Shown: positions 2,197 to 63,369 of the stretch, piece by piece
How positions within the stretch are numbered: position 1 is the stretch's first letter
Layout of the letters: every line of letters starts with the position of its first letter
NCBI GenBank assembly: GCA_021199295.1
Contig: JAJQII010000002.1
Coordinates: 7,756 to 71,755 of the forward strand
DNA length: 64,000 nucleotides
Direction of reading: 5' to 3'
DNA from: Clostridia bacterium
Lineage (GTDB): Bacteria > Bacillota > Clostridia > Christensenellales > Borkfalkiaceae
Program-made: the position numbers and the translations under genes
Notes under the pieces: generated by a model
What the model saw: the letters and a program-made list of their open reading frames with translations, nothing else
Databases searched by the model: none
Told to the model about the DNA's origin: nothing

Positions 2197-2313
2197 TCAG
2201 CCCTGGCGCTGTTTATGGCTCTTGTTCTTAGAGCAGATTACCATAACTTTGCCGTTTCTTTTAATTATCTTGCACTTGTCGCACATAGGCTTTACTGAAG
2301 GTCTTACTTTCAT
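2197..2313 (-). CDS. rpmJ: 50S ribosomal protein L36 (Cys3His zinc form)
   Basis: Too short for the ORF track. Own translation [38 protein letters not shown], with GAGGAG upstream. Confidence 0.93.
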
Positions 2314-2338: not shown

Positions 2339-2499
2339 CACGCAATTCTTTTTTTATTGCTGTAAAAAAATAATTGCACGATTTTATACTCTTGCCTCCC
2401 CTGCAAGGGGAGGAATTAAAGGTGGGGTTTTCCCTTTTGGTAATACTAACTAACCCCTTCGCCACTTCGTGGCCCTCTTCCCCTTTCAGGGGACGCAAG
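2339..2499. repeat. Repeat cluster in the infA-rpmJ spacer: partial element-X hairpin H1 (2339-2380), module M2 (2391-2432), module M3 (2452-2499)
   Basis: H1 matches 10497-10538. M2 CTTGCCTCCCCTGCAAGGGGAGGAATTAAAGG recurs inverted at 22614-22655. M3 AACCCCTTCGCCACTTCGTGGCCCTCTTCCCCTTTCAGGGGACGCAAG recurs at 40841-40888 and inverted at 30921-30965. Confidence 0.9.
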
Positions 2500-6225: not shown

Positions 6226-6684
6226 TTATTCCGCTGCGCCCTCAACTTCTGCCGTGCCGCCTGCTTTTTCTATAGCAGCCTTGGCAGCTTCAGAAAACTT
6301 TGCAGCCTTTACGGTAAGGGCAACGTTTATTTCGCCGTCGCCGAGTACTTTAAGACCGGAATTGTTCTTGACAAATTTTGCAAGTTTATTTGAAACAACA
6401 TAATCGTAATCGACTACCGTTCCTGCGGGTACGCTTGCAAGCTGCGAAAGGTTAATTATAACGTAGCTTGTAGCCCACTTGTTGTGGAAACCGCGCTTGG
6501 GAATTCTTCTTGCAATAGGCATCTGACCGCCTTCGAAACCGGGGCGTACGCCGCCGCCCGAACGCGCCCACTGGCCTTTATGACCTTTGCCGCTCGTCTT
6601 GCCCGTGCCTGAGCCTATGCCCCTGCCGAGCCTTTTGGGAGCGGTTTTAGAACCCTCTGCGGGGGATAACGTATCTATTCTCAT
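6226..6684 (-). CDS. rplO: 50S ribosomal protein L15
   Basis: 152 aa, Gly/Lys-rich N-terminus GRGIGSGTGKTSGKGHKGQ. Confidence 0.96.
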   Translation of the reverse strand: MRIDTLSPAEGSKTAPKRLGRGIGSGTGKTSGKGHKGQWARSGGGVRPGFEGGQMPIARRIPKRGFHNKWATSYVIINLSQLASVPAGTVVDYDYVVSNKLAKFVKNNSGLKVLGDGEINVALTVKAAKFSEAAKAAIEKAGGTAEVEGAAE

Positions 6685-10064: not shown

Positions 10065-10433
10065 TTAAAGAACTTCGGGAGCAAGGGAAATTATCTTCAT
10101 ATAGTTCTTTTCCCTGAGTTCCCTTGCGATCGGTCCAAAAATACGAGTGCCCTTGGGCTCTTTATTCTGGCCTATAATAACCGCCGCGTTGTCGTCGAAT
10201 CTGATATATGTGCCGTCGTCGCGCCTTATACCCTTTGTGGTACGCACGATAACAGCCTTAACTACTTCGCCTTTCTTTACGCCGCCGCCGGGGGTTGCCG
10301 TTTTAACCGAGCACACGATTACGTCGCCTATATTGCCCGTTTTACGGAAACTTCCGCCCAGCACCTTTATGCACATAAGCTCTTTAGCGCCGCTGTTGTC
10401 TGCAGCTTTGAGCCTTGTCTGGGGTTGTATCAT
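10065..10433 (-). CDS. rplN: 50S ribosomal protein L14
   Basis: 122 aa, [28 protein letters not shown]... Confidence 0.97.
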
Positions 10434-10496
10434 ATAAATTCTCCTTGATTTATGATTAAATACCTACAACAACTTTTGCAGAGGACTGTGTTCTGC

Positions 10497-10639
10497 TCAC
10501 GCAATTCTTTTTTATTGCTGTAAAAAAACAATTGCCGTGACTTTTCGGGGACAACCATTCTTACGAATGTTATTTCCCCGCTTTTTCGTATTTTTCAGGG
10601 CGTACCATTAATATAATACGAAAAATTCACCCTTTTACC
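10497..10639 (-). repeat. Element X copy 1 (~145-nt triple hairpin) in the rpsQ-rplN spacer
   Basis: Aligns along its whole length with 20506-20660 and with the reverse complement of 31077-31234. Hairpins are H1 10497-10538 and H3 arms 10581-10591 / 10614-10624. Confidence 0.9.
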
Positions 10640-10794
10640 CTGAGCTGCAAGTAGGTTGCAGCAAATATGGGCGCTCAGGCACAGCAAAGCCGCACCTTCG
10701 CCCTGTTTATTATTTTAAACATATAGGGCGTCTGCGGAGAGCAGATTGTTTTATTTTTATCAGTCGTGCAAGCGATTGTTTTGGGAAAAGGTTA

Positions 10795-14196: not shown

Positions 14197-14822
14197 TATT
14201 TACCGTAGACCTCCTCGATTACTTTTACCGCCTCTTTGGTAAGAACTACTTTGCTGTTTGCAACCACTTCGTATGTGGATATCTGCGCCACGGGAAGGGT
14301 GGTAAGTTTTTGTATGTTCTGTGCCGCGCGGATTACTTTTATATCGTCGTTATCCATTACGACAACGGCAGATTTGTCAAGACCTAACGCCTTCTGGAAG
14401 GCTACCATCTCTTTGGTTTTGCCGTTTTCAACCGAAAGGCTTTCGACTACGATAAGCTCGCCGTCGGTAACCTTTTTGGAAAGGGCAGATACAAGCGCGG
14501 CAGCTTTTGCCTTCTTGTTCATGTCCTTGGAGTAGTCACGGCTCTTGGGTGCGAACACAACGCCGCCCTTTACCCACTGGGGAGCTCTTATAGAGCCCTG
14601 GCGGGCATTGCCTGTGCCCTTCTGCCTCCAGGGTTTGCGTCCGCCGCCCCTTACTTCTGTACGGGTGAGGGTGGATTTTGTTCCCTGCCTGTCGTTTGCA
14701 AGGCGGGTTACTACCGCCTGGTGTATAAGCGCTTCGTTGTATTCAGCGCCGAACACTGCTTCGCTCAATTCTATGTTGCCGGCTTCAGTGCCGTCCATTT
14801 TATATACTTTTACGCTGGGCAT
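14196..14822 (-). CDS. rplD: 50S ribosomal protein L4
   Basis: 208 aa, ...[20 protein letters not shown]... Confidence 0.96.
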
Positions 14823-19543: not shown

Positions 19544-20491
19544 TCAATAAAATGTAGCAACTTCCTGTTCGGGGGGATCGGCGCGTTCCACGCTTTCGGC
19601 TATAAGCACAGGGCCTTTATCGCGGTACACGGAATTGTATTCGAAAGCCACTTTTGCCGTTATGGTAAGCCAGTCCTTTGTCTTTATTCCCTGCAAAAGA
19701 TTACCCACCTTTACGGCAAAACCGTCGTAAGCTATATCCGCCTCGCAGCAGGTCATAATATATCTGCCAAGGACTATATACCCCGCGGGTACTTTTTTGC
19801 TCACCGCCGCCATACCCTTAAACTTTACCGTCTTGCCGACATACTCATCCATCTTTTCGGCTATATCGCGGTAGAACAGGGCAAAATCCACGTCCTCGAT
19901 TTCCACAACGGGGGCGTTTACGTCAAACGGAAGAGGGTCTTCTATCTCGTCATATTCCACTTTGCCCCCTATATATTCGTAAACTATGTCAGAGCGGCGG
20001 GATATCCCGCGGACTACTTTGTGGAACTCCATCTTGTCGTATTCGCCCTTGAAGCGGTTGAACACTACCATCTGCGTCATCTGTATTTTATCGTAGACGA
20101 GCTGGCGCATATTCTGGTTGTAACTTGCAAAGGTGTTCGCATCGAAGAAGGTCATCATCTGGTTTATAACCCAGCATTCGGGCATGGCGTCGAAAAACTG
20201 CTGGAGCATCCACGTTCCGTTAAATTCCACGATAACGCGCTGTGCGCGGTGCTTTACGGTAAGCGCAAGCATGTTTTCGGCGGTAAGCTGCGTAACGTCG
20301 TCCAGAGTTTCTATGGCGACGTTTTTCACCTTGAATTTAGAGGGTTCGTATTCCACTTCCCCTTCCTCGCAGATAAGGAGCATGGTACGCTCGCCGCTTT
20401 CCATACGGGGATCTTCTAAAGTTTCCTGTATAAATTGAGTTTTGCCCGACTCTAAAAAGCCGAGGAATAAATAAACACTTACGTCTTGCAT
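19544..20491 (-). CDS. CobW/COG0523-like P-loop domain fused to a DUF1980/TIGR03943-like C-terminal domain
   Basis: 315 aa. N-terminus VYLFLGFLESGKTQF...LLICEEGEVEY is CobW-like. The C-terminus GRYIMTCCEADIAYDGF resembles the MTCCAADA motif of the TIGR03943 family (from memory). Confidence 0.7.
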   Translation of the reverse strand: MQDVSVYLFLGFLESGKTQFIQETLEDPRMESGERTMLLICEEGEVEYEPSKFKVKNVAIETLDDVTQLTAENMLALTVKHRAQRVIVEFNGTWMLQQFFDAMPECWVINQMMTFFDANTFASYNQNMRQLVYDKIQMTQMVVFNRFKGEYDKMEFHKVVRGISRRSDIVYEYIGGKVEYDEIEDPLPFDVNAPVVEIEDVDFALFYRDIAEKMDEYVGKTVKFKGMAAVSKKVPAGYIVLGRYIMTCCEADIAYDGFAVKVGNLLQGIKTKDWLTITAKVAFEYNSVYRDKGPVLIAESVERADPPEQEVATFY

Positions 20492-20505
20492 AAACTAACC
20501 GTGTT

Positions 20506-20720
20506 CACGCAAATCTTTACGGTTTGCTGCCCGTAAACATTTGCCGTGATTTTCAGGAAACAACCAATCTTCGTTTCACTTCGATTGTTATTTTCCCTCT
20601 TTTTTGTATTTTTTAAGGGCGTACGTATTATATAATACAAAAAATTCACCCTTTTACCTTAATACTTCGGGGTTTTGGGCATAACGCAGTGACGCCCAAA
20701 ACTCATTATTTGTTTTAGAA
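20506..20720 (-). repeat. Element X copy 2 plus a 60-nt extension shared with copy 3
   Basis: H1 is 20506-20548; the core runs to 20660. The extension TTAATACTTCGGGGTTTTGGGCATAACGCAGTGACGCCCAAAACTCATTATT matches the reverse complement of 31021-31076. Confidence 0.9.
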
Positions 20721-20785
20721 TTAACCGCAAATGTGCGTATTCTTTTGCCTTCACCCTTTGAGGGGACGCCTTACAAGTGGCACAA

Positions 20786-21102
20786 TGGTAGCTGAAAGAT
20801 ATCCAGCTTAGATTGCCACGCCGCCAAAAGCGGCTCGCAATGACACACACCCTTGCCTCCCTTGTAAGGACGAGCCAATATTATTCCAAACAGTGTGGTA
20901 CACTGTTTGGATTGGCGAGATGAGCAAACGCATAAGTAAGGCGTTTGCGGCGACCGAGACGGCGGGTAAATACCTAACCGCCGTTGAGACGGAATTAAAG
21001 GAGGGGTTTTCAGATAATATAGAATGTAATGGAAACAGCCTTCTTGCGTCATATTATCTGAAACATAATATAATGCGGTGCGCAAAGTGTCGCTTACGTA
21101 CA
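20786..21102. repeat. Repeat cluster between the two COG0523 genes: S unit (20786-20845), perfect hairpins, M2 fragment, Q module (about 21044-21102)
   Basis: TGGTAGCTGAAAG-N-GCTTAGATTGCCACG-hairpin-CTCGCAATGACA; CCAAACAGTGT-GGT-ACACTGTTTGG at 20887-20911. Confidence 0.85.
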
Positions 21103-21113
21103 CAATGACATTA

Positions 21114-22196
21114 TTACACACCGAAAAGTTCGGAAAGTTCCTCTTTGTCTATCTTGCTGCCTATTACGCACAGCCTGCCCGTGTAGGCGGCACAGCCGTC
21201 ACGCACTTCGGGCTCGCCAGGGACGTAGTCAAAGTGAAGCCAGCCGCCCTCTTTACCCTTTACTATCCCCTTTGCACGGAGCACAGTACCGTACTGCACT
21301 GAATTGGTAAGGGCAGACAGCGCCGCAGTAAGTTCTTCTTTGGTAAAGCTCTTTGCCGTCTCAACACCCCAGCTTTCAAATATTTCGTCGGCATGGTGGT
21401 GATGGTGTTCATGTTCGTGTTCGTGGTCGTGGTCATGGTCATGATGATGGCATCCGCATTCCTCGTCATGGTCGTGATGGTGTTCATGCTCGTGCTCATG
21501 TTCATGTTCGTGTTCATGTTCATGCTCTTCGTCATCATCGTGGTGATGGTGGTGATGCTCGTGGCAGTGTTCCTTAAGTTCAGCAAGCATATCCGAAAGG
21601 GTGTCGCTGTGTTCCATGGCGGCAAGTATCTCTTTGCCGTCAAGCTCCTGCCAGGGGGTTGTAACAAGGGTAGCCTTGGCATTGTGCTCGCGCACGAGCT
21701 GGGCAGCCTTGGCAAGTTTTTCTTCCCCCGCCACGTCGGCATGGCTGAAGATTATGCAGTTTGCAGTTTCTATCTGGTCGTTGAAGAACTCACCGAAGTT
21801 CTTCATATACATTTTGCACTTTGCCGCATCCACTACCGCAGTATACGTGTTAATAGTGCAGTCGGGCAATTCGGCACTGTATACCGCCCTGATAACGTCG
21901 GAAAGTTTGCCCACGCCGGACGGCTCGATAAGAATCCTGTCGGGCTTGTACTCGTTGTAAACTTTGTTGAGGGCTTTGGCGAAATCACCCACAAGCGAGC
22001 AGCATATGCAGCCCGAGTTGAGCTCGTTTATCTTTATGCCCGCTTCGGCAAGAAAGCCTCCGTCTATGCCGATATCGCCGAACTCGTTTTCTATTAACAC
22101 GAGTTTTTCGCCCGCGTAAGCCTCTTTAATCAGCTTTTTGATAAGCGTGGTCTTGCCAGCGCCTAAAAATCCCGAAAAAATATCGATTTTTGTCAT
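21114..22196 (-). CDS. COG0523 (CobW/ZigA/YeiR-type) metallochaperone GTPase with a long His-rich insert
   Basis: 360 aa with FSGFLGAGKTTLIKKL, ENEFGDIGID, CICCS and a ~75-aa HEHEHEHEH/HDHDH tract. Confidence 0.9.
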   Translation of the reverse strand: MTKIDIFSGFLGAGKTTLIKKLIKEAYAGEKLVLIENEFGDIGIDGGFLAEAGIKINELNSGCICCSLVGDFAKALNKVYNEYKPDRILIEPSGVGKLSDVIRAVYSAELPDCTINTYTAVVDAAKCKMYMKNFGEFFNDQIETANCIIFSHADVAGEEKLAKAAQLVREHNAKATLVTTPWQELDGKEILAAMEHSDTLSDMLAELKEHCHEHHHHHHDDDEEHEHEHEHEHEHEHEHHHDHDEECGCHHHDHDHDHEHEHEHHHHHADEIFESWGVETAKSFTKEELTAALSALTNSVQYGTVLRAKGIVKGKEGGWLHFDYVPGEPEVRDGCAAYTGRLCVIGSKIDKEELSELFGV

Positions 22197-22261: not shown

Positions 22262-22340
22262 ACATTCCGCTTTAAAGTTTGTAATATATAGGGTAAATCT
22301 TACAGGCGGTTTTTGTTTGGGAAAGGTCTATGCGGTCGAA

Positions 22341-22700
22341 TGGTAGCTGAAAGTTTACGTGCTTAGATTGCCGCGCTGCGCTCGCAATGACAAGTAACTT
22401 AGAGGCTTTGTAAAAGCCGTGGCAATCTAAACCCAACGTTTATCAGCTACCATAACCACCTTTTTAATAAGTGTAGAATTGTTAGAATAAACGTATCATT
22501 TTTAAACAACTAATCTGCCGTCCTGCCTGCTGGTCGCGCGTCCGCGCGGGATTGCCACGGGGTAGACCCCCTCGCAATGACATATTATTGTGTACCGTTA
22601 GCCTTATAATCTGAAAACCCCTCCTTTAATTCCTCCCCTCTCAGGGGAGGCAAGGGGACATGTCATTGCGAGGCTTTGTAAAAGCCGTGGCAATCTAAGT
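22341..22700. repeat. Repeat cluster: S units (22341-22392 forward, 22402-22453 and 22661-22700 reverse), L module (22455-22582), M2 inverted
   Basis: Direct comparison with clusters at 26 kb, 28 kb, 30.7 kb, 61.6 kb and 63.1 kb. Confidence 0.9.
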
Positions 22701-22790
22701 CCAATGTTTTCCATTTATCCCCCACCGCTTTTGGAGCTTGTTAATTACGGCATATTACGGGGGTAATTACAAAATACTCTTAAAGTTGAA

Positions 22791-22846: not shown

Positions 22847-23551
22847 TTATTTGCCCGACTTTTTCTTGTAGTTCAAACGGCGGAATGTGCCGTCCTCTTT
22901 ATGTATCATTATGCCCGCTTCCTGCCTTTGGGCAAGCACTTTGGCATATTCTATTGCCTCTGCCTGGGTATTGAAAAGTTTTATAGCCTTAGCTCCGTTA
23001 TTAAACTTGACCTGCCACTTGCCGTCTGCCTTGCGCTTGGTTATGTGGTAAACTTTGGCGCTCTTTTTCTTTTCTTCGGGCGATTCGTCCTTTTCAGCAG
23101 AGTCCTCTTTAACTTCCTCTGCAGGTTCAGGCTCTTTTGCAGGCTTCACCTCTTTCACGGGTTCAGCTTTCTTTTCAGCCTTGGGTTTTTCTTCCTTTTT
23201 AACGGGCTCTTTCACTTCTTCCTCTTTTACAGGCTCGGGCTCTTTTTCAGGCTCAGCCTCTATTACGGGTTCGGGTTCTTTTTCGGGTTCAGGCTCTTTT
23301 ACCGAAGTATCCTCTTTTACAGCCTCAGGCTCTTTTTCGGTTACAGGCTCAGGCTCTGCTTTAGCTTGTTCTTCAGGCTCTTTTGCCGCAGGCTGTGCTT
23401 TTGCAGCCTTTTTAGCCCTATTGATTTTAGCGCATACTACGGCTATAACTATTATAAGTATAACCACTACCACGGCAAGGACTATCCATGCCCATACGGG
23501 TATGCCGTTCCATTCGCCTGTCAAGAAACTTGAAATCGAAAGCAGATTCAT
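22847..23551 (-). CDS. membrane-anchored protein with an E/K/P-rich repeat linker and a C-terminal DUF2188-like domain
   Basis: 234 aa. N-terminal TM, KEPEPV-type repeats, C-terminus KVYHITKRKADGKWQVKFNNGAKAIKLFNTQAEAIEYAKVLAQRQEAGIMIHKEDG. Confidence 0.75.
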   Translation of the reverse strand: MNLLSISSFLTGEWNGIPVWAWIVLAVVVVILIIVIAVVCAKINRAKKAAKAQPAAKEPEEQAKAEPEPVTEKEPEAVKEDTSVKEPEPEKEPEPVIEAEPEKEPEPVKEEEVKEPVKKEEKPKAEKKAEPVKEVKPAKEPEPAEEVKEDSAEKDESPEEKKKSAKVYHITKRKADGKWQVKFNNGAKAIKLFNTQAEAIEYAKVLAQRQEAGIMIHKEDGTFRRLNYKKKSGK

Positions 23552-25862: not shown

Positions 25863-26270
25863 TGTCATTTCGAGCGGAACGTAGTGTAGTCGAGAAATCT
25901 CCTGCCTTCAGCGTTCTGCTGCCGTGCAACTTTAGTTGCGATGCCTTATCACCGCTTATAAGCGGCACATAACTACTTGTCATTGCGTGCGAGGGCGTAG
26001 CCCGACACTCTGCGTACCTTATTGTAAAATGTTTCAGATTATAAGGCGCAGATGCTTTGTAAAAGCCGTGGCAATCTAAGCCCATCGCCTTTCAGCTACC
26101 ATACCACCTTATTAATAGGTGTAGAATTATTAGGAAGTAACGTATTATTCTTAAATAACTAATCTACCGTCGTGCCTGCTGTTCGCGCGTCCGCGCGGGA
26201 TTGCCACGGGGTAGACCCCCTCGCAATGACATACGCGTTTCTGCCGCTTATTAGTATGCGCAATGACAAG
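25863..26270. repeat. Repeat cluster: GTCAT-hairpin (25864-25900), N module, S unit carrying a nested Q module (25988-26053), L module (26101-26231)
   Basis: Module-by-module identity with the other clusters. Confidence 0.9.
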
Positions 26271-28054: not shown

Positions 28055-28143
28055 AGAAACACCTCGTTTCTCGTGAATTTATTTTTCGGGTTGCACTGTT
28101 TGTTTTATTTCATTTACCATTATTATAACGGCACATAACCTCC

Positions 28144-28529
28144 TGTCATTGCGAGGGGCTCTACCCCGTGGCAATCTCGCGTGCGAGCGATAGCGACACT
28201 CTGCACACCAATTATAAAAGACTTCAGATAATAAGGTGCAGATAACTCGCGAACAGCAGGCTGGACGACAGATTAGTTGTTTAAAAATAATACGTTTATT
28301 CTTATCAATCTTCGCCTTATAAAAAGGTGATATGATAACTGAAAGGCGTTTTTGCTTGGCTTTCCGCGAGCCGCAACATTCTGTTGCTCTCGCGAGATCC
28401 TCACGTCGTGCCTTACGGCACTCCTCAGGATGACGTAGTATACTGTCGTTTGCCAGCGGTGGTATGATAGCCGAAAAACAATAGGCTTAGATTACCACGT
28501 CGCAAATAAATTTACTCCTCGCAATGACA
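28144..28529. repeat. Repeat cluster: inverted L module with nested Q (28182-28245), P module (28326-28437), S unit (to 28529)
   Basis: Same module order as the reverse complements of 61563-61853 and 63095-63338, circularly permuted. Confidence 0.9.
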
Positions 28530-28574
28530 TAATCCCTTGCCGCACTGTAAAAACGCAGACGGACTATAAAACTT

Positions 28575-30035: not shown

Positions 30036-30343
30036 AAGCTGTTTGCCCGTGAACAGCGTGTATTTTTTCCGTTTTACCGTATTTGCCTGCGCCTGCGTAA
30101 TAATTCACCTCCGCCACTGTTTGCCGCTTATAAATCAGCTGTGTAACATTATAAACTTTTTTAAATTATTGTCAACGGCGTGAAGCCCTTAAAACCATAA
30201 AAATTTATTACCGCACCGCAGGCAAAACCCGCCGCAAAAAATTTTTTTGCTTTAGATGTAAATTTTATAAAAACGGTGTTGACTTAAAATTTTAAAGTGT
30301 TATAATACGCATTGGAAAAAGACAGGTGTCACTTTTCTTCATT

Positions 30344-30965
30344 GTGGTCGAATTATAGCTGAATGTTCACTTCGCTTAGATTGCCACGGCTTTTACAAAG
30401 CCTCGCAATGACACACTTAAGCGGCAGAAACTTACCTGTCATTGTATGTGGGTAATAACGATAACTGAAAGGCGTTTTTGCTTGGCTTTCCGCGAGCCGC
30501 TTACGCTCTTAGTGCGCGAGCGTAAGCGACACTCTGCGCACCTTATTATAAAAAAATCTATAATGTGGCGCAGATATCCTCACGTCACGCTACGCTCTTT
30601 CATCTCGCATACGCGAGGGCAGCGCTGACGCTCTGTCATTGTTCCATATTAAACGGTACACAACAATCTGTCATTGCGTGCGAGCGATAGCGACACTCTA
30701 AGCACCTTATTGTAAAAGATTTCGATAATAAGGCTTAGATGGGCTCTACCCCGTGGCAATCCCGCGCGGACGCGCGACCAGCAGGCAGGACGGCAGATTA
30801 GTTGTTTAAAAATAATACGTTACTTTCTAATAGCTCTTCGCCTTGTATGCGGTGATGACGATAGCTGAATGTTCACATCGCTTAGATTGCCACGCTTCGC
30901 TCGCAATGACACAACTCTTGTGTCCCCTGTAATGGGAAGAGAGCCGCTTGCGGCGAAGGGGTTTA
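30344..30965. repeat. Repeat cluster in the MATE/yitT divergent spacer: S units (30344-30413, about 30850-30912), P with nested Q (30512-30575), Q (30679-30740), inverted L, inverted M3
   Basis: Module identity with the other clusters. Confidence 0.9.
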
Positions 30966-30975
30966 ATAATAAAAC

Positions 30976-31237
30976 CAAATATTTACGGGCAGCAACTGAA
31001 AAACAAATTCACGAGAAATTAAAACTAATAATGAGTTTTGGGCGTCACTGCGTTATACTCAAAACCCCTAAGTATTAAGGTAAAAGATTGAATTTTGCGC
31101 ATTATACAATCCGTACGCTAAAACAAAATGCGCAAAAGAAAGAAAAAACATTCGCAGGTACAAAGTTCCGAGAATGGTTTGTCTTTTAGAGTCGTGAATT
31201 TGTTTTTCAGCAGCAATTGAAAAACAAATTCACGAGA
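30976..31237 (+). repeat. Element X copy 3 (core 31077-31234, extension 31021-31076) flanked by a ~27-bp direct repeat and a chimeric half-hairpin
   Basis: GCAGCAACTGAAAAACAAATTCACGAGAA at 30990-31018 and GCAGCAATTGAAAAACAAATTCACGAGAA at 31209-31237. Confidence 0.85.
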
Positions 31238-31259
31238 ACAAAATTATAAAGGTAATTAT

Positions 31260-32183
31260 ATGAATAAGAAGAAAGTTGCAAACATTATAATCAGGCATCT
31301 TATAGCCACTTGCGGCTGTGCCCTTTACGCTTTGGGCGTGGAGCTCTTTTTAAGCCCTAATAACCTTGCCTCGAGCGGCATTACAGGTATAGGCTTAATA
31401 CTTGAAAATTACGGCATTTTATCTACAGGCTACTGGATTATTATCTTCAATATCCCCCTGTTTGTTCTGGGATTTGTATTCCTCGGCAAAGGGCTTATGG
31501 TATCCACAATCTACTCTACCGTAATTTCCTCGCTGTTTATGGAACTCTTTTCCTTCCTCTTCGGCGGCAGCTGCCTCGACATCCTGCCCCTTACAAGCAA
31601 CTCGCTTATCGCAGCCGTTGCCGCAGGTATTTTGTTCGGCCTTGGGCTGGGGCTTGTTTTCAGGGCACATTCCTCCACAGGCGGCACGGATATCATAGTA
31701 AAGATACTGCGCAAGAAATTCAGATACCTTGAAACGGGCGAGATTGCCTTTGCCGTAAACGTTATTATAGTAACGCTCGGCGCTATATTTATACAGACCA
31801 CCGAACTTGTTGCAGAAATGACTCAGGTAGAAAGGTGGATTTACTCGGTAATATCGCTCGCCACCGAAACGTTTACCTTCGACTACGTTTTATACGGCAG
31901 CAACTCGGCAAAGCTCGTCTACATAATACCCGGCGGCTGCGACGTGGAAACCATGTGCAGACACATAATGACCGAGGTAAACACGGGTGCGACATTTTTA
32001 AACGGCAAAGGCGCGTACACGAATACGGACAAGGAAGTTATAATGTGCGTATGCAGGAAAGCCGCCTTCCCCAAACTTAAAGATATCGTAAAGAAAGAAG
32101 ACCCCAAAGCCTTTATGATAGTCACTTCGGCAAAGGATATTTACGGCGTGGGCTACCAGGACCCCAATGCCGACGAACTATAA
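31260..32183 (+). CDS. YitT family membrane protein (DUF2179 C-terminal domain)
   Basis: 307 aa, 5-6 TM, C-terminal FPKLKDIVKKEDPKAFMIV. Confidence 0.8.
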   Translation: MNKKKVANIIIRHLIATCGCALYALGVELFLSPNNLASSGITGIGLILENYGILSTGYWIIIFNIPLFVLGFVFLGKGLMVSTIYSTVISSLFMELFSFLFGGSCLDILPLTSNSLIAAVAAGILFGLGLGLVFRAHSSTGGTDIIVKILRKKFRYLETGEIAFAVNVIIVTLGAIFIQTTELVAEMTQVERWIYSVISLATETFTFDYVLYGSNSAKLVYIIPGGCDVETMCRHIMTEVNTGATFLNGKGAYTNTDKEVIMCVCRKAAFPKLKDIVKKEDPKAFMIVTSAKDIYGVGYQDPNADEL

Positions 32184-33820: not shown

Positions 33821-34312
33821 ACGATAGCATTACTTAGATTGCCACGGTGGGGAGGGTAAAGCCCATCTAAGCCATATTACCCGAAAAACCCCTTCGCCAC
33901 AAGTGGCGAAGGGGTTTACAAGGGCAACGCCCTTGTCATCTTGAGCGAAGTCTGAAAGACGTAGTCGAAAGATCTCCTACCTTAAGTGCTCGATTGTCGT
34001 GCAACGCTGGTTGCAATGCGCTACCACCGCTTTAAAGGTCATAATGATAACTGAATGCCGCCGTAATTAGTCGGTCGCGAGCCGCAACTATCGTTGCTCT
34101 CGCGGGATTCTTCGACTCCGCTCAGAATGACGGAAAAGCGACCACTCCCCCCTCGTCATCCTGAGGAACGCGTAGCGTGACGTGAGGATATCTGCGCCAC
34201 ATTATCTGAAACCTTTTACAATAGGGTGCGCAGAGTGTCGCTACGCTCGCACGCTAAGAGCGAAGCGGCTCGCGGAAAGCCAAGCAAAAACGCCTTTCAG
34301 CTACCGTTAGAC
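33821..34312. repeat. Repeat cluster downstream of pdxT: partial S, M3-like perfect hairpin, GTCAT-hairpins (33935-33975, 34104-34131 reverse, 34155-34192), N, Q (34189-34252), inverted P
   Basis: Module identity with the other clusters. Confidence 0.9.
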
Positions 34313-34317
34313 CACAT

Positions 34318-34347
34318 TAAAAAAGCGGGAAACATTCCCGCTTTTTT
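34318..34347. terminator. bidirectional rho-independent terminator
   Basis: AAAAAA-GCGGGAA-ACA-TTCCCGC-TTTTTT, about 90 nt downstream of tRNA-Arg on the minus strand. Confidence 0.8.
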
Positions 34348-35890: not shown

Positions 35891-36165
35891 AACTAACGCC
35901 GCCGAGGCATAAGGGTATCCCGAAAAAGATTTGCCTGCAAAGGTTTTTCGGGAAGAGGAACAGAAATTGAAGTAATATTGCCGCCAGTCTGAAAGGCTGG
36001 CGGCTTTGAACGTAAATTTCTGTGACGAGGCGGCGGCGTGATTGACACGGTAATATATTGAAACTAATGCCGCCGAGGCATTAGGGGAAAGCTATTAAAG
36101 CGGTAATATGATAGCTGAAAAGCGTTTTTGCTTGGCTTTCCGCGAGCCGCTTCGCTCTTAGCGTG
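35858..36165. repeat. 53-bp duplication of the mnmA 3-prime end (35858-35910 and 36029-36081) bracketing a 118-bp hairpin-rich insert, followed by a truncated P module (36103-36165)
   Basis: The two 53-mers differ at 2 positions. The first copy contains the mnmA stop codon. Confidence 0.9.
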
Positions 36166-36221
36166 CGAGGGCTTTATTGCAAACGGTAATCGTTGCAATC
36201 AGATAAAAAACACCATTTTAC

Positions 36222-40577: not shown

Positions 40578-40624
40578 AATTGCAACAAATGATACTACCT
40601 CATTCTAGCCTTTCACTTAAAACG

Positions 40625-41038
40625 GTGGTATGATAGCTGAAAAGCGTTTTTGCTTGGCTTTCCGCGAGCCGCTTCGCTCTTAGCGTGCGAGGGCGTAGCC
40701 CGACACTCTGCGCACCTTATTGTAAAGGTTTCAAATTATAATGCACAGATAGCCTCACGTCACGCTTCGCTCTTTCATCTCGCATACGCGAGGGCAGCGC
40801 TAACGCTCGCGCAGGATGACAAGGGCTGCGCTCATGTAAACCCCTTCGCCACTTCGTGGCCCTCTTCCCCTCTCAGGGGACGCAAGGGCTGTCATCTCGA
40901 CCGAAGTGGAGAGATCTCCAATCAGTAGCGTTCATTGTACCTACCCCTTATCTTCCCATGCAAGGGGAAAATACCAAAAGGTGGTATGATAGCTGAAAGT
41001 TATCCAGCTTAGATTGCCACGCTGCGCTCGCAATGACA
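40625..41038. repeat. Repeat cluster: P with nested Q (40685-40750), M3 (40841-40888), GTCAT-hairpin (40891-40917), S unit (to 41038)
   Basis: Module identity with the other clusters. Confidence 0.9.
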
Positions 41039-41079
41039 TATCCCGTTAAACACACCATTCCCCCGCAAGTATGGGGCAA

Positions 41080-42913: not shown

Positions 42914-42986
42914 TTTTTAATTACCCCCGACATATGGCGTGATTAATTGTTTATTTTATTGCCTCTTTGCTTTTTATAAGGACGAA

Positions 42987-43046
42987 TGGCAGCTGAAAGT
43001 CGTCCGGCTTAGATTGCCACGCAAACTACGTTTGCTCGCAATGACA
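42987..43046 (+). repeat. solitary S unit
   Basis: TGGCAGCTGAAAGTCGTCCGGCTTAGATTGCCACGCAAACTACGTTTGCTCGCAATGACA. Confidence 0.9.
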
Positions 43047-43106
43047 TACTACTTATTTATCATTATGTACAAATAAACGGCAGTAACCTATTTGTCATAC
43101 ACATTA

Positions 43107-50238: not shown

Positions 50239-50976
50239 TTATTTTTTGAATACAAACAGGTATTCGTGCGCAAGCAATAAAAAGTTATACTTAACACTAT
50301 TCGTCTTCCAGAAACCCGTCGCTTTACAGTTATGCTGCTGCTTTATTATGATTTCTTTTGTTTTGAACCCTGCAAGTTCAAACAGCCGCATTGTTTCAAA
50401 AGCCAAAGGCTGCACCATCCCGTTTTTTCTGGTATCACCCATCAGAACTGCACAGAATTTATCTTTTTTCAGAACACGGTAAAATTCGTCTGCCACTTTG
50501 CCCATTTCGGCAAGAAACGGCTTCATGGATAATAATGACAAGTCGCCTTCTATGCCGTCGCTGTAATTTATAATATTCGCATACGGCGGGTGCGTACAAA
50601 TAAGATCTACACTTTCTTTATCCAGCGGTAATTGCCTTGCATCGCCCTGTAAAATGGATATATCTACGCCCGAATCATATTCAAAGGCACATTTTTTTAC
50701 AGAGAGATCTACCGCCAACGGGTTTATATCTATACCTATAAAATTTCTGCCGGTGAGCTTAGCTTCTACCGCCGTTGTTCCGCCACCGACAAAAGAATCC
50801 AATACGGTATCCCCTTCCGACGAATAACGTAAAATAACGTTGCGCGGTATATAAGGCGACCAGTTACCGCGATATTTTGCGTCATGCGTAGCCCACCTGC
50901 CACGCACAGGAAAGTCCCATACCGTGGTACTTTCTAGTTCAAAATTTTCAGGCTGTAAAGGTATCTTCTTTGCCAT
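50239..50976 (-). CDS. DNA (N6-adenine or N4-cytosine) methyltransferase, second MTase of the R-M island
   Basis: 245 aa. AdoMet motif VLDSFVGGGTT and catalytic CTHPPY; 1-nt gap from the upstream nuclease gene. Confidence 0.85.
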   Translation of the reverse strand: MAKKIPLQPENFELESTTVWDFPVRGRWATHDAKYRGNWSPYIPRNVILRYSSEGDTVLDSFVGGGTTAVEAKLTGRNFIGIDINPLAVDLSVKKCAFEYDSGVDISILQGDARQLPLDKESVDLICTHPPYANIINYSDGIEGDLSLLSMKPFLAEMGKVADEFYRVLKKDKFCAVLMGDTRKNGMVQPLAFETMRLFELAGFKTKEIIIKQQHNCKATGFWKTNSVKYNFLLLAHEYLFVFKK

Positions 50977-50977
50977 A

Positions 50978-51517
50978 TCAGTCGGTTACCAATTCTGGCG
51001 GTACGGGTAAACCCAATTTTGTAAGCGGAATATACTCAAAATAATAATCACAATCAACGGAATGTATATAGTCTAACACATCTTTATATTTGGGATCTTT
51101 GAACCAATCGTCGAGCAAATATATGTACTTGACGTCGATATTAGCCGGCGACATAAGCTTTTTATACTGCTTTTTCTTAAAATCACATGTCTGGAGTTTT
51201 TCATCAACCGATCCGGCTACCTGCTGATGCTTACACTCTATAATATGCAAAATATTATTTGACAATACATATATGCTATCGTCAGGATAGAGCTGTTTTG
51301 AAATATAGTCTTCCCAGTTTATATTCAGTTCCTTCAGAAATATATTATAAAATGCGTGTTTTTTAAATACCCTTGCCACAAGTTCGTTGTCGTAAAACAC
51401 TTTATCGGTCTCTACTGCATAATGAGGCTGTTTCGCAAGAAACGTAGCTAAATCAACTTCGCCTTCGAACACAAGTCCCGTTCGCGTGTTTCCTCCGCCT
51501 TTTCCGTTTTTTATCAT
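50978..51517 (-). CDS. small PD-(D/E)XK nuclease, putative type II restriction endonuclease
   Basis: 179 aa. YPDD...HIIECKHQ matches D...ExK. It sits between two MTase genes in one tight operon. Confidence 0.7.
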   Translation of the reverse strand: MIKNGKGGGNTRTGLVFEGEVDLATFLAKQPHYAVETDKVFYDNELVARVFKKHAFYNIFLKELNINWEDYISKQLYPDDSIYVLSNNILHIIECKHQQVAGSVDEKLQTCDFKKKQYKKLMSPANIDVKYIYLLDDWFKDPKYKDVLDYIHSVDCDYYFEYIPLTKLGLPVPPELVTD

Positions 51518-51527
51518 AATAACTCCT

Positions 51528-52595
51528 TTAATTGTGTATCAAAAGTTCACTTATTTTTCCGCGGGAATTGCCTTTACTGTTTACCGAACGCGCCGCATAA
51601 ATTCTTTCTATTTTGTAGTTGCTGTACAAATCATCAAAAAAATTATCTTCCTTGTTGGTATTTTTAGGATCAGAATTGCTTAAAACAAATTTTGCACCCT
51701 TGCCGTTAATTCGGTCTACATACTCCGCAAGGCGGCGCTGTTCGTTATCATCAAAAGCGTCTATGTTATAAGAAGTAAAACCCGATGTCTGCGAAATAGG
51801 GCGGTACGGCGGATCAATATACACGAAAGTATTTTCATCTATAAATTTCTCTGAAAGGGTATAATCGCCGCAAACGATTTCTACATTTTGTAACGCCGAC
51901 GATAAATTTATAAGATTAGCTTCGTCGCATATAGTGGGATTTTTATACGCCCCCATAGGTACGTTAAACTGCCCCTTTTTATTAACGCGGTAAAGCCCGT
52001 TAAAGCAAGTCTTGTTCAAAAAAATAAACTGGGCAGCTTTTACCACCGACGCACTACCGTTAAGTTGAACACTGTTAAATTTATCACGGACGGAATAATA
52101 GTAAAATTTTCTGCCGTTTTCATCCATAGGCAAAAATGATAGCTGCATTTCAGTAAGTTTGCTTATAAGCGGCTTTACGTCTGATTTTATCACATTGTAG
52201 GCATTAATAAGTTCCGCATTTGAATCGCTTACGTAAAAACTTTCAAAATTGTATTTAGAAAGCAAATCAAAGGCGAGCGCACCGCCGCCAACCATTGGCT
52301 CGGCATATTTTGTAATAACTTTGCCGCTATCAGAAAAAATATACTTTTCTATTTCGTCTGTAACCTGCGATTTACCGCCAGCCCATTTAACAAACGGCTT
52401 TATCGCAATTTTTTTTAATTTTTCGTTTTTTATTGTCCTTTTATCTACGGGCTTTTGTGCCGTGCTCGGAATTATCCACATGTTGCCGACCATCATTGCA
52501 CCGTCTATACGCTTTTCGCCACATAAAACAGAAACGCGCCTTGGCGATATATCCCACTTTTCAGCAGCTTCTTTTGCAGAAATAAAACTTAACAT
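51528..52595 (-). CDS. Dam-family (alpha-class) N6-adenine DNA methyltransferase with an N-terminal HTH domain
   Basis: Trimmed to ATG 52595 (AGGTGA upstream). FVKWAGGKSQ, AEPMVGGGA, YIDPPY. The N-terminus ISAKEAAEKWDISPRRVSVLCGEKRIDG is excisionase/MerR-type HTH-like. Confidence 0.88.
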   Translation of the reverse strand: MLSFISAKEAAEKWDISPRRVSVLCGEKRIDGAMMVGNMWIIPSTAQKPVDKRTIKNEKLKKIAIKPFVKWAGGKSQVTDEIEKYIFSDSGKVITKYAEPMVGGGALAFDLLSKYNFESFYVSDSNAELINAYNVIKSDVKPLISKLTEMQLSFLPMDENGRKFYYYSVRDKFNSVQLNGSASVVKAAQFIFLNKTCFNGLYRVNKKGQFNVPMGAYKNPTICDEANLINLSSALQNVEIVCGDYTLSEKFIDENTFVYIDPPYRPISQTSGFTSYNIDAFDDNEQRRLAEYVDRINGKGAKFVLSNSDPKNTNKEDNFFDDLYSNYKIERIYAARSVNSKGNSRGKISELLIHN

Positions 52596-58574: not shown

Positions 58575-58667
58575 TGCCGTGCAACGTTAGTTGCAATGCG
58601 CTACCACCGCTTGCAAGCGGCACGCGCCTACCTGTCATTGCGAGGGGGTCTACCCCTCGCAATGACA
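58575..58667. repeat. N module plus a perfect 15-bp palindromic form of the core (58633-58667)
   Basis: TGTCATTGCGAGGGG-GTCTA-CCCCTCGCAATGACA. Confidence 0.9.
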
Positions 58668-58741
58668 TTTTGTTATGTATCGTTTAGTAATTGTCGCTAA
58701 GTACCATATTGTCAAACGTTTGTTCTTGGATTTTATAAAGT

Positions 58742-61219: not shown

Positions 61220-61562
61220 AAATACTTATCCTCCCTTATTGAGTAAAAAATTTTATGCCTTAAACTTTACGCAAAAAAATAAAAAAGGAAGTGTTTTTAA
61301 TTGCTTAACGATTAGTTAAGCAATTACCCGCGGGTAAAAAATTTTTCTTAATTTTTTTCAGTGGTCTTTCCCTTATAATATTAACGCGCGAAATTCCAAG
61401 GCATACTGATTATAACACGTAAAAATGTAAAATGCAATACATTCCGCCAAAATTTTATAATAAAAAACAAAAAATGTTTGTTTATAACAAAAAATAAATT
61501 AGTTTTTTTGTCAAACATTTGTTTTAATTAAGGTATGGTCAAATAGCGAATATTATCATCAC

Positions 61563-61853
61563 CTTTCAGTCACCATATTACCTTATAACAAGGCGAAGAG
61601 TTATTAAAAAGTAACGTATTATTTTTAAACAACTAATCTGCCGTCTTGCCTGCTGGTCGCGCGTCCGCGCGGGATTGCCACGGGGTAGACCCCCTCGCAA
61701 TGACAGATAGGTTTCTGTCGTTTCTTGACTAAAGTGACCGCGCACCACGTCATCCTGAGGAGAGAGCAAAGCGAACGACGTGAGGATCTCGCGAGAGCGA
61801 AGCGGCTCGCGGAAAGCCAAGCACGACGCCTTTCAGCTACCATACCACCGCTT
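61563..61853 (-). repeat. Complete ~290-nt composite unit (P + core hairpin + L)
   Basis: Collinear with 63095-63338 and with 28144-28437. Confidence 0.9.
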
Positions 61854-61933
61854 TTATAATTTATGCGGTTAGCCTCTTGAAAGGGGGAATTTGATGATAA
61901 ATCAATATTCTACTTAAAGGAGGAAAAGCGCAT

Positions 61934-63006: not shown

Positions 63007-63094
63007 TTTTGATATGGTTATGTTTTGGTGAGGTATTTAGAATATCCCAGCATCAGTCACTTATTATTTAAGGAACAATGTTATATAAATAAAC

Positions 63095-63338
63095 ATTATT
63101 ATTTTTAAATAACTAATCTACCGTCCTGCCTGCTGGTCGCGCGTCCGCGCGGGATTGCCACGGGGTAGAATCCCCTCGCAATGACAAAGTATTGTGTGCC
63201 GCTCCTTAGCAGGAACGACCGCTCTCCTCGTCATCCTGAGGAGAGAGCAAAGCGAACGACGTGAGGATCTCGCGAGAGCAACTTAAGTTGCGGCTCGCGG
63301 AAAGCCAAGTTGGACGATATTCAGCTACCATACCACCG
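63095..63338 (-). repeat. Second near-complete composite unit (P + core hairpin + L)
   Basis: Collinear with 61563-61853. Differences cluster in the inner hairpins. Confidence 0.9.
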
Positions 63339-63341
63339 CTT

Positions 63342-63369
63342 TAAAAGCCTTTCCCCTCAAGGGAAAGCT
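63342..63369 (-). terminator. terminator after jag/khpB
   Basis: Minus strand AGCTTTCCC-TTGAG-GGGAAAGGCT followed by TTTT. Confidence 0.65.

Follow-up and report, generated by a model that had tools for sequence, protein, structure and literature searches.

The 64-kb stretch analysed here (the window) carries ordinary housekeeping genes; by a crude gene call, about one-fifth of it is non-coding, and its spacers reach 1.3 kb. Four of these spacers contain copies of a structured element, designated X, placed before rplN, a gene with weak CobW and DUF1980_C domains (the CobW-like gene), yitT and rpmJ (Table 1). A search of the window with a covariance model, R1, built from five copies, returned exactly three full copies (E 1e-33 to 1e-37, bit scores 155-174) and one copy reduced to the hairpin H1, with no further convincing match. 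The 19-mer GGTAAAAGGGTGAATTTTT, allowing up to three mismatches, occurs three times in the window versus 0.05 expected. Sequence comparison and model search thus bear out the three full copies and one partial copy listed in a preliminary description of this DNA, and the distances from H1 to the start codon reported there were right to within 1 nt.

Each full copy has the same order on the gene-sense strand: hairpin H3, hairpin H2, hairpin H1 and then the start codon. The preliminary description, which had presented X as a triple hairpin of about 150 nt, holds for the core (H3-H2-H1) and for copy 1. Copies 2 and 3 run ∼60 nt further in the 5′ direction and include an extra hairpin, H0, so that the full unit, consisting of this 5′ extension plus the core, measures ∼215 nt, within an overall size range of ∼150-220 nt. 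The H0 stem covaries between copies (GGGC/GCCC, GGAC/GTCC and TGGC/GCCA), and on its 5′ side lies an AT-rich start (TAAAAYWAATAATG), itself preceded by a degenerate H1-like remnant. The 3′ end of the element is sharp, at YGTGA(A/G)C. H1 is an imperfect palindrome of 40-43 nt with the foot CACG(G)/YGTG, and is AT-rich in the window subfamily. The arrangement seen at copy 3, a truncated H1-like hairpin (H1′) followed by a full element, recurs at another locus (L003). The chimeric appearance of this H1′ suggested integration by recombination within the H1 loop, a candidate that was rejected on the absence of the predicted reciprocal hybrid at the right-hand H1.

Table 1. Copies of element X, their neighbouring genes and other repeats in the window.
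Feature	Position	Strand	R1 match	Hairpins	Context
Copy 1, core only	10494-10643	-	10494-10643; 163 bits, E 8.6e-35	H3 10582-10625, H2 10546-10580, H1 10497-10540	rpsQ-rplN spacer; H1 end 64 nt from rplN ATG (10433)
Copy 2, full length	20502-20721	-	20502-20662; 173.6 bits	H0 20672-20702, H3 20600-20644, H2 20555-20597, H1 20505-20549	H1 end 14 nt 5′ of ATG (20491) of CobW-like gene
Possible remnant, degenerate 3′ arm of an H1-like hairpin (CAAAAGAATACGCAC)	20733-20747	-			Directly 5′ of copy 2; weak evidence, from by-eye comparison with H1 of copy 1
Copy 3, full length	31017-31238	+	31075-31238; 154.7 bits	H0 31032-31061, H3 31093-31137, H2 31138-31186, H1 31191-31234	H1 end 25 nt 5′ of yitT ATG (31260)
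H1′, truncated H1-like hairpin	30982-31015	+			Abuts copy 3 on its 5′ side; CAGCAA loop and copy-3-type 3′ arm retained
H1-only copy	2339-2380	-	2335-2445; 35.4 bits, E 3.5e-06		25 nt 5′ of rpmJ ATG (2313); different repeat family immediately upstream
yitT promoter, sigma-70-type	30279-30306	+			TTGACT, 16-nt spacer, TATAAT; 11/12 matches; TG before second hexamer
Stack of other hairpin repeat families	30320-30981				Between yitT promoter and copy 3; families D5, D10, D13, D18, D19, I2-I5; motifs CTCGCAATGACA and GCTTAGATTGCCACG among others
rpmJ	2197-2313	-			
rplN	10065-10433	-			
CobW-like gene (CobW/DUF1980_C)	19544-20491	-			
yitT (YitT family)	31260-32183	+			
Other repeats, first half of window	20770-20870, 22320-22720, 25920-26250, 28120-28550, 30320-30980, 33900-34320				
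Other repeats, second half of window	36095-36170, 40617-41040, 42970-43050, 58575-58685, 61557-61860, 63080-63350				

The fold of the element is well supported. Copies score folding z values of about -4.2 to -4.6 against shuffled sequence, and RNAalifold, run on five copies, recovered H3, H2 and H1 with compensatory changes at 20 of the 43 pairs. When the alignment was widened to 19 family members from both subfamilies (the second is described below), 95.8% of cells were paired, compared with 70% in shuffled controls and no more than 54% when the partners were slid against each other, and 33 of the 43 pairs changed on both sides. The earlier observation that three hairpins are maintained by compensatory changes therefore stands, as do the loop motifs, which read CAGCAA (H1) and GTACGC (H3) on the gene-sense strand. 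The bulge and the mismatch noted as common to copies 1 and 2 are a bulged G and a G.G mismatch on the sense strand, the latter present in four copies.

Departures from Watson-Crick pairing carry information on the strand that folds. Across the 19 copies, which are related, so that the counts do not represent independent events, G.U cells outnumber A.C cells by 17 to 6 (nine of the G.U cells belonging to a single pair of the H1 foot, CACG/UGUG) and purine-purine mismatches outnumber pyrimidine-pyrimidine ones by 20 to 3. This asymmetry points to the strand reading 5′ extension-H3-H2-H1 as the one whose fold matters. The same preference is found in copies lying antisense to their neighbour genes, which would accord better with the element's own life cycle, through an intermediate of single-stranded DNA or RNA, than with selection on each host transcript. 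Between two genomes, the unpaired parts of the element show 90-100% identity, as against only ∼75% for the rest of the alignable spacer sequence, suggesting either selection at the sequence level or else recent spread.

X matches no RNA family in Rfam. Scanning the whole window against Rfam at the gathering threshold gave a tRNA only, and when two copies from the window and one from the distant subfamily were searched by E-value, only noise came back. The family nevertheless extends well beyond the window. The window RplN is identical to a Ribosomal_L14 protein of the public metagenome-assembled genome (MAG) GCA_021205485.1 (‘Clostridia bacterium AH.12_2'), which has at least three X copies; a literature search on this accession returned nothing relevant. 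An exact look-up of the RpmJ protein led to ten long contigs of related Clostridia in which R1 found distant relatives of X, and a pattern derived from these relatives yielded ten more loci in a metagenome scan. A first metagenome scan with a pattern of the window subfamily had given no match, viral contigs, scanned twice, produced only chance matches, and one match of the genome scan (L002) was likewise attributed to chance. Exact-protein look-ups with the window CobW-like and YitT proteins had no match.

The distant subfamily, represented by at least 14 copies in the related metagenome contigs, has the same layout as the window copies with different stems. H3 is formed by GGCGGCATT/AATGCCGCC or TGCCCCGATT/AATCGGGGCA, H2 by GAGAAAC/GTTTCTC, and H1 combines a constant foot (TCACGRAATTTTT...AAAAATTYGTGA) with an upper stem that is variable and always complementary. 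Its 5′ extension is conserved, ∼95 nt long and folds into two more hairpins, one of them with a GAAA, GCAA or GUGA loop on a covarying stem. Full-length members contain six helices, with compensatory changes at 29 of 54 pairs. Tandem copies occur (L019), as do copies split by other repeats (L009 1169-1288 and L017) and lone H1 hairpins. In the loci examined, each 5′ extension has its own core behind it. In many related genomes an H1-like hairpin with the foot CACGG...CGTGA lies ∼20-25 nt before rpmJ, and these rpmJ-proximal hairpins could serve a conserved local function. The idea that H1 is merely an insertion target outside the unit was considered and rejected: copies from the same metagenome have the core and a near-identical H1 in common (L016 7837 and 11168; L017 8617 and 9971 with L018).

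Two details of individual copies deserve mention. Two orthologous copies from different metagenomes (L020 2538-2577 and L024) agree almost completely in their flanks and exactly in the 3′ arm of H1. Their H1 5′ arms differ, that of L024 resembling the arm found in L022; this could stem from recombination inside the loop of H1 or from a chimeric assembly at a contig end. Separately, a small hairpin repeat, ACGNACANCGGGTNTCCGNTGTNCTATGAA, occupies the same position of the 5′ extension in two X copies of one contig (L017 4945-5112 and 8517-8600), a pattern suggestive of a sub-lineage with a nested insertion.

Gene neighbours were assigned from long open reading frames and then checked by eye. About ten independent loci place X in the sense direction upstream of a start codon (the four window loci, L003, L008/L018, two in L017, L019 and L023), about seven place it antisense (L004, L009, two in L016, L017 4823, L020/L024 and L021 1724), and two loci are ambiguous. 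The constant orientation reported in the preliminary description is thus true of the four window copies and does not extend to the family; it was an effect of small sample size. What does recur is the placement of one end, since the H1 end is usually the one closer to a coding sequence. It lies 11-25 nt before the start codon in most sense copies (14-64 nt in the window copies). Among six antisense loci, five have it 3-12 nt past the stop codon, and at the remaining one the coding sequence runs 13 nt into H1. At its opposite, 5′ end the element is often separated from the next gene by 100-330 nt, a space in which other repeats are often found. Random orientation and random distance to genes, together with transcriptomics showing no effect, had been named beforehand as the mark of a plain MITE-like repeat; we found orientation to be mixed, but the H1 end adjoins coding-sequence boundaries far more often than random insertion predicts. 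A replication-linked orientation bias, as in IS200/IS605 elements, was also considered and is not supported: the GC skew of the window runs one way, yet copy 3 points in the opposite direction to copies 1 and 2 and the H1-only copy.

The sites occupied by X are 5′ untranslated regions, spacers within operons and 3′ untranslated regions, so that the element would be transcribed passively with its neighbours. At three of the window copies the gap of 14-25 nt leaves no room for a promoter, and the gene must therefore be transcribed through the element. The neighbours themselves are unrelated housekeeping genes with no common function, among them rplN, yitT, a gltD-like gene and prfA.

Comparison of orthologous sites shows that X is variably present. 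The rpsQ-rplN spacer of GCA_021205485.1 matches that of the window at both edges, with unrelated repeats in the slot that X occupies in the window. Conversely, the infA-rpmJ spacer of that genome has a full copy (L005 17054-17214, 168 bits) where the window retains only the orthologous H1 beside a different repeat. Another NCBI Clostridia MAG encodes a protein with 100% identity to the window YitT, and X was absent upstream of yitT in three related assemblies whose YitT orthologues are 88%, 89% and 79% identical to the window protein.

The yitT locus also reveals how far the repeats have reshaped a leader. In two relatives (L028; L029 with the Logan contigs L030 and L031) a strong TTGACT/16-17 nt/TATAAT promoter lies ∼45-65 nt from the yitT ATG. 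The window promoter aligns base for base with both of these, and its distance from the ATG is 953 nt, with ∼900 nt of stacked repeats in between, X being the one nearest the gene. With the promoter so far behind the stacked repeats, X belongs to a greatly expanded 5′ untranslated region of yitT, and it appears dispensable for yitT expression in the relatives. In one of these relatives (L029 2960-2975; also L030 and L031) the 11-mer GTAAAAGGGTG, which is the start of the X core (GGTAAAAGGGTGAAT), is found directly 5′ of the yitT -35 box at a site without X; this could be chance, roughly 0.03-0.1 occurrences being expected, or a remnant.

These observations establish X as a real and previously uncatalogued family, absent from Rfam, that has multiplied in an uncultured lineage of Clostridia in which several hairpin repeat families crowd the intergenic spacers. 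We consider it likely that X is a non-coding, modular, non-autonomous interspersed repeat that is co-transcribed within untranslated regions. It fits best among the small structured interspersed repeats, a known kind of element of which it forms a new family, rather than among leaders or riboswitches. The preliminary description had weighed a cis-acting leader or control RNA against a mobile element under orientation selection. By position the window copies are leaders; a dedicated role in regulating rplN, rpmJ, yitT or the CobW-like gene is argued against by leaders that lack X in relatives and by neighbours that are unrelated. Mobility is the better fit, given presence and absence at orthologous sites, tandem, nested and H1-only copies and the division into subfamilies, although the orientation rule attached to it does not hold for the family as a whole.

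Terminal inverted repeats were not found: the sequence at the 5′ end (ATTYTAAAATAAT...) does not recur in inverted form at the 3′ end (...AAAATTYGTGARC), H1 being the only palindrome. No direct repeat indicative of a target-site duplication was seen flanking the copies, and no empty site differing from a filled one by X alone was recovered among the loci compared. The 5′ flanks often consist of the ends of other repeats (GTGARC or AATGACA), with no strict target tetranucleotide emerging. Among 30 window proteins none showed a transposase domain, and no TnpA or TnpB gene was seen in the window. As no transposase, terminal inverted repeats or target duplication were found, mobility is deduced only from orthologous presence and absence and from copy number, and X would be a non-autonomous repeat spread by a separate system. 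Its fold may be needed for propagation through a single strand, or for X to be tolerated or useful within mRNA. H1, for instance, could act as a stable hairpin protecting the 5′ end of the downstream message or, when inverted, the 3′ end of the upstream one; with stable H1 hairpins sitting beside ribosome-binding sites and stop codons, such protection of mRNA ends may be incidental or may come from later recruitment by the host.

Several known repeat systems share parts of this description, those nearest in behaviour being BOX elements, bcr1-type repeats, REP/BIME mosaics and hairpin-ended non-autonomous derivatives of IS200/IS605. The bcr1 and related repeats of the Bacillus cereus group are, like X, Firmicute repeats of ∼150 nt with a compensated secondary structure, variable between strains and transcribed with their neighbours; bcr1 has a defined target-site duplication, whereas none was found for X. 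As in classical MITEs, X is short, non-coding, multicopy and present or absent at orthologous sites, but it has no terminal inverted repeats. Non-autonomous derivatives of IS200/IS605 elements resemble it in having no terminal inverted repeats, no obvious target duplication, a sharp end, bulged imperfect hairpins on one strand and a tendency to insert immediately behind the ends of other elements. They differ in that no TnpA or TnpB was seen in the window, X has no clear 5′ target tetranucleotide and its orientation in the window does not follow replication. X would thus be compatible with single-strand transposition of the IS200/IS605 type, its strand asymmetry, sharp 3′ end and missing inverted repeats not being specific to that family. 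A dedicated cis-regulatory leader, on the other hand, would hardly be absent before yitT in three relatives and before rplN in one, nor be shared among unrelated genes, and only the H1 before rpmJ is widely kept.

Two further systems are comparable by behaviour. BOX elements of Streptococcus pneumoniae are modular repeats of boxA, boxB and boxC whose terminal inverted repeats pair with each other. They are similar to X in being short and non-coding, in combining hairpin modules in various ways and in their intergenic location, often within untranslated regions and co-transcribed, as well as in their tight fold, the absence of a coherent class of neighbour genes and the lack of a transposase of their own (PMC3049150). 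Unlike BOX, X lacks pairing terminal inverted repeats and has a sharp H1 end, a strand preference and sites at coding boundaries. A REP is one GC-rich palindrome, 20-40 bp long, that carries an unpaired GTAG or CGTC tag; REPs and BIMEs have been described, as X is here, as intergenic palindromic hairpins arranged in repeat mosaics, many of them just after coding regions and probably transcribed (PMC3733652). X differs from REPs in forming a unit of 150-215 nt with four to six hairpins, in lacking a GTAG or CGTC tag and in the H1 foot CACG(G)...YGTG.

A related possibility, compatible with the repeat reading but to our mind rather unlikely, is that X has been domesticated as a cis-acting RNA module, a repeat that spreads but is kept for its effects on RNA stability or processing. 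In sense copies, H1 before the ribosome-binding site would shield the 5′ end of the downstream message or mark a processing site; inverted after a stop codon, it would be a 3′-end stabiliser or weak terminator. The clustering of the H1 end at short distances before starts and after stops in both orientations argues for this, together with the retention of H1-like hairpins before rpmJ in many genomes, a defined folding strand and the strong conservation of loops and linkers between genomes. However, orthologous genes in relatives manage without X, and the strand preference persists in antisense copies, whose host transcript would carry the other strand. Nor is the placement of the H1 end explained by antisense H1 working as a canonical terminator. 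Downstream of H1 in the antisense direction comes ATTTTGAG or a sequence like it, with no more than 3-4 T; X yielded no terminator call in either orientation, none was called at the element in L016 and L017, and in L004 a separate canonical terminator lies beyond the antisense copy. Some effect of X on RNA stability or processing is nonetheless compatible with these data.

The terminator in L004 forms part of a compact arrangement before prfA (6307-6444), in which a terminator hairpin (6307-6330) and T run are followed by a strong promoter, TTGACA/18-nt spacer/TATACT; the -10 box of this promoter stops 7 nt short of the prfA ATG, suggesting that the prfA mRNA is leaderless.

A bolder extension of the repeat reading, which we hold to be less probable still, would make X and the repeats stacked with it a new class of strand-specific mobile elements. 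These would move through a folded single strand of DNA or RNA, seek out the borders of coding sequences or the ends of other repeats, and lengthen untranslated regions to as much as a kilobase, which the host would then employ as modules of RNA stability or processing.

Readings in which X is a site or a gene of its own fare much worse. It is very improbable that X acts as a DNA site, either a palindromic operator such as a Zur-type box or an attC-like recombination site. H1 is a 40-bp imperfect palindrome near start codons, two of the four window genes (rpmJ and the CobW-like gene) are of a kind often controlled by zinc, and the conserved bulge and mismatch recall the extrahelical bases of attC sites. 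A Zur-type operator is rejected because the stems covary, whereas an operator would keep its sequence, and because the other neighbours, including rplN, yitT, the gltD-like gene, prfA and many more, are unrelated. As to attC, the core motifs RYYYAAC/GTTRRRY are absent from H1, the window offers no integron context, and the mismatch asymmetry points to a single-stranded form.

We give equally little credence to X as independently transcribed, trans-acting small RNA genes, a reading that its length of ∼215 nt, several covarying hairpins, the GNRA-capped hairpins of the distant subfamily and a defined strand would invite, since no consistent sigma-70-type promoter or terminator was found within or beside X (the conserved TATAAT of the H3 loop lies just 11 nt from the nearest -35-like hexamer, GTGAAT or TTGAAT, and was not called as a promoter), sense copies end 11-25 nt from starts and antisense ones overlap 3′ untranslated regions.

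Reading X as a dispersed repeat has a practical consequence. With unusually clean covariation over four to six hairpins and no Rfam entry, X could easily pass for a riboswitch or leader RNA when genomes are screened comparatively, and recognising it as a repeat prevents that misassignment. The yitT 5′ untranslated region has grown from ∼60 to ∼950 nt by repeat stacking, and the infA-rpmJ spacers of the related contigs (L006-L015) measure 130-1088 nt, where tens of nucleotides are usual. The lineage thus offers a natural system for studying how essential operons tolerate or exploit long structured inserts, and it raises the question of what mobilises repeats that have neither inverted ends nor a visible target duplication and yet are strand-biased.

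X is one of many hairpin repeat families in the window. Members of the other families lie in either orientation, often one stacked upon another, and carry motifs such as CTCGCAATGACA, GCTTAGATTGCCACG and GCTGAAAG. In a related contig (L009 413-1500) we observed a tandem duplication of ∼430 nt in which both units end in the same H1 hairpin (1013-1052 and 1444-1483). Short-read contigs of the relatives, L028 among them, can end at or near repeats, most clearly a Logan contig (L033) that starts within ∼50 nt of the repeat upstream of rpmJ, and less clearly L025, at 14637-14682, where the stretch retrieved ends; MAGs of this lineage therefore probably under-represent the repeats.

Some features of the window outside the repeats were also recorded. 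Upstream of the CobW-like gene, at 21114-22196 (- strand), lies a CobW-family GTPase whose long His-rich stretch is specified by imperfect repeats rich in CAT/CAC (21384-21563), and from this adjacency the two probably form a metal-chaperone pair. A DUF2188 protein is encoded at 22847-23551 (- strand), its N-terminal part by ∼15 tandem units of 18 nt (23108-23409). Two DNA methyltransferase genes, one an N6_N4_Mtase fragment and the other a D12-class N6-adenine methylase, are found at 50239-52595 (- strand), where the GC content of the window is lowest (39%); they lie ∼0.7 kb apart and may be the remnant of a restriction-modification island.
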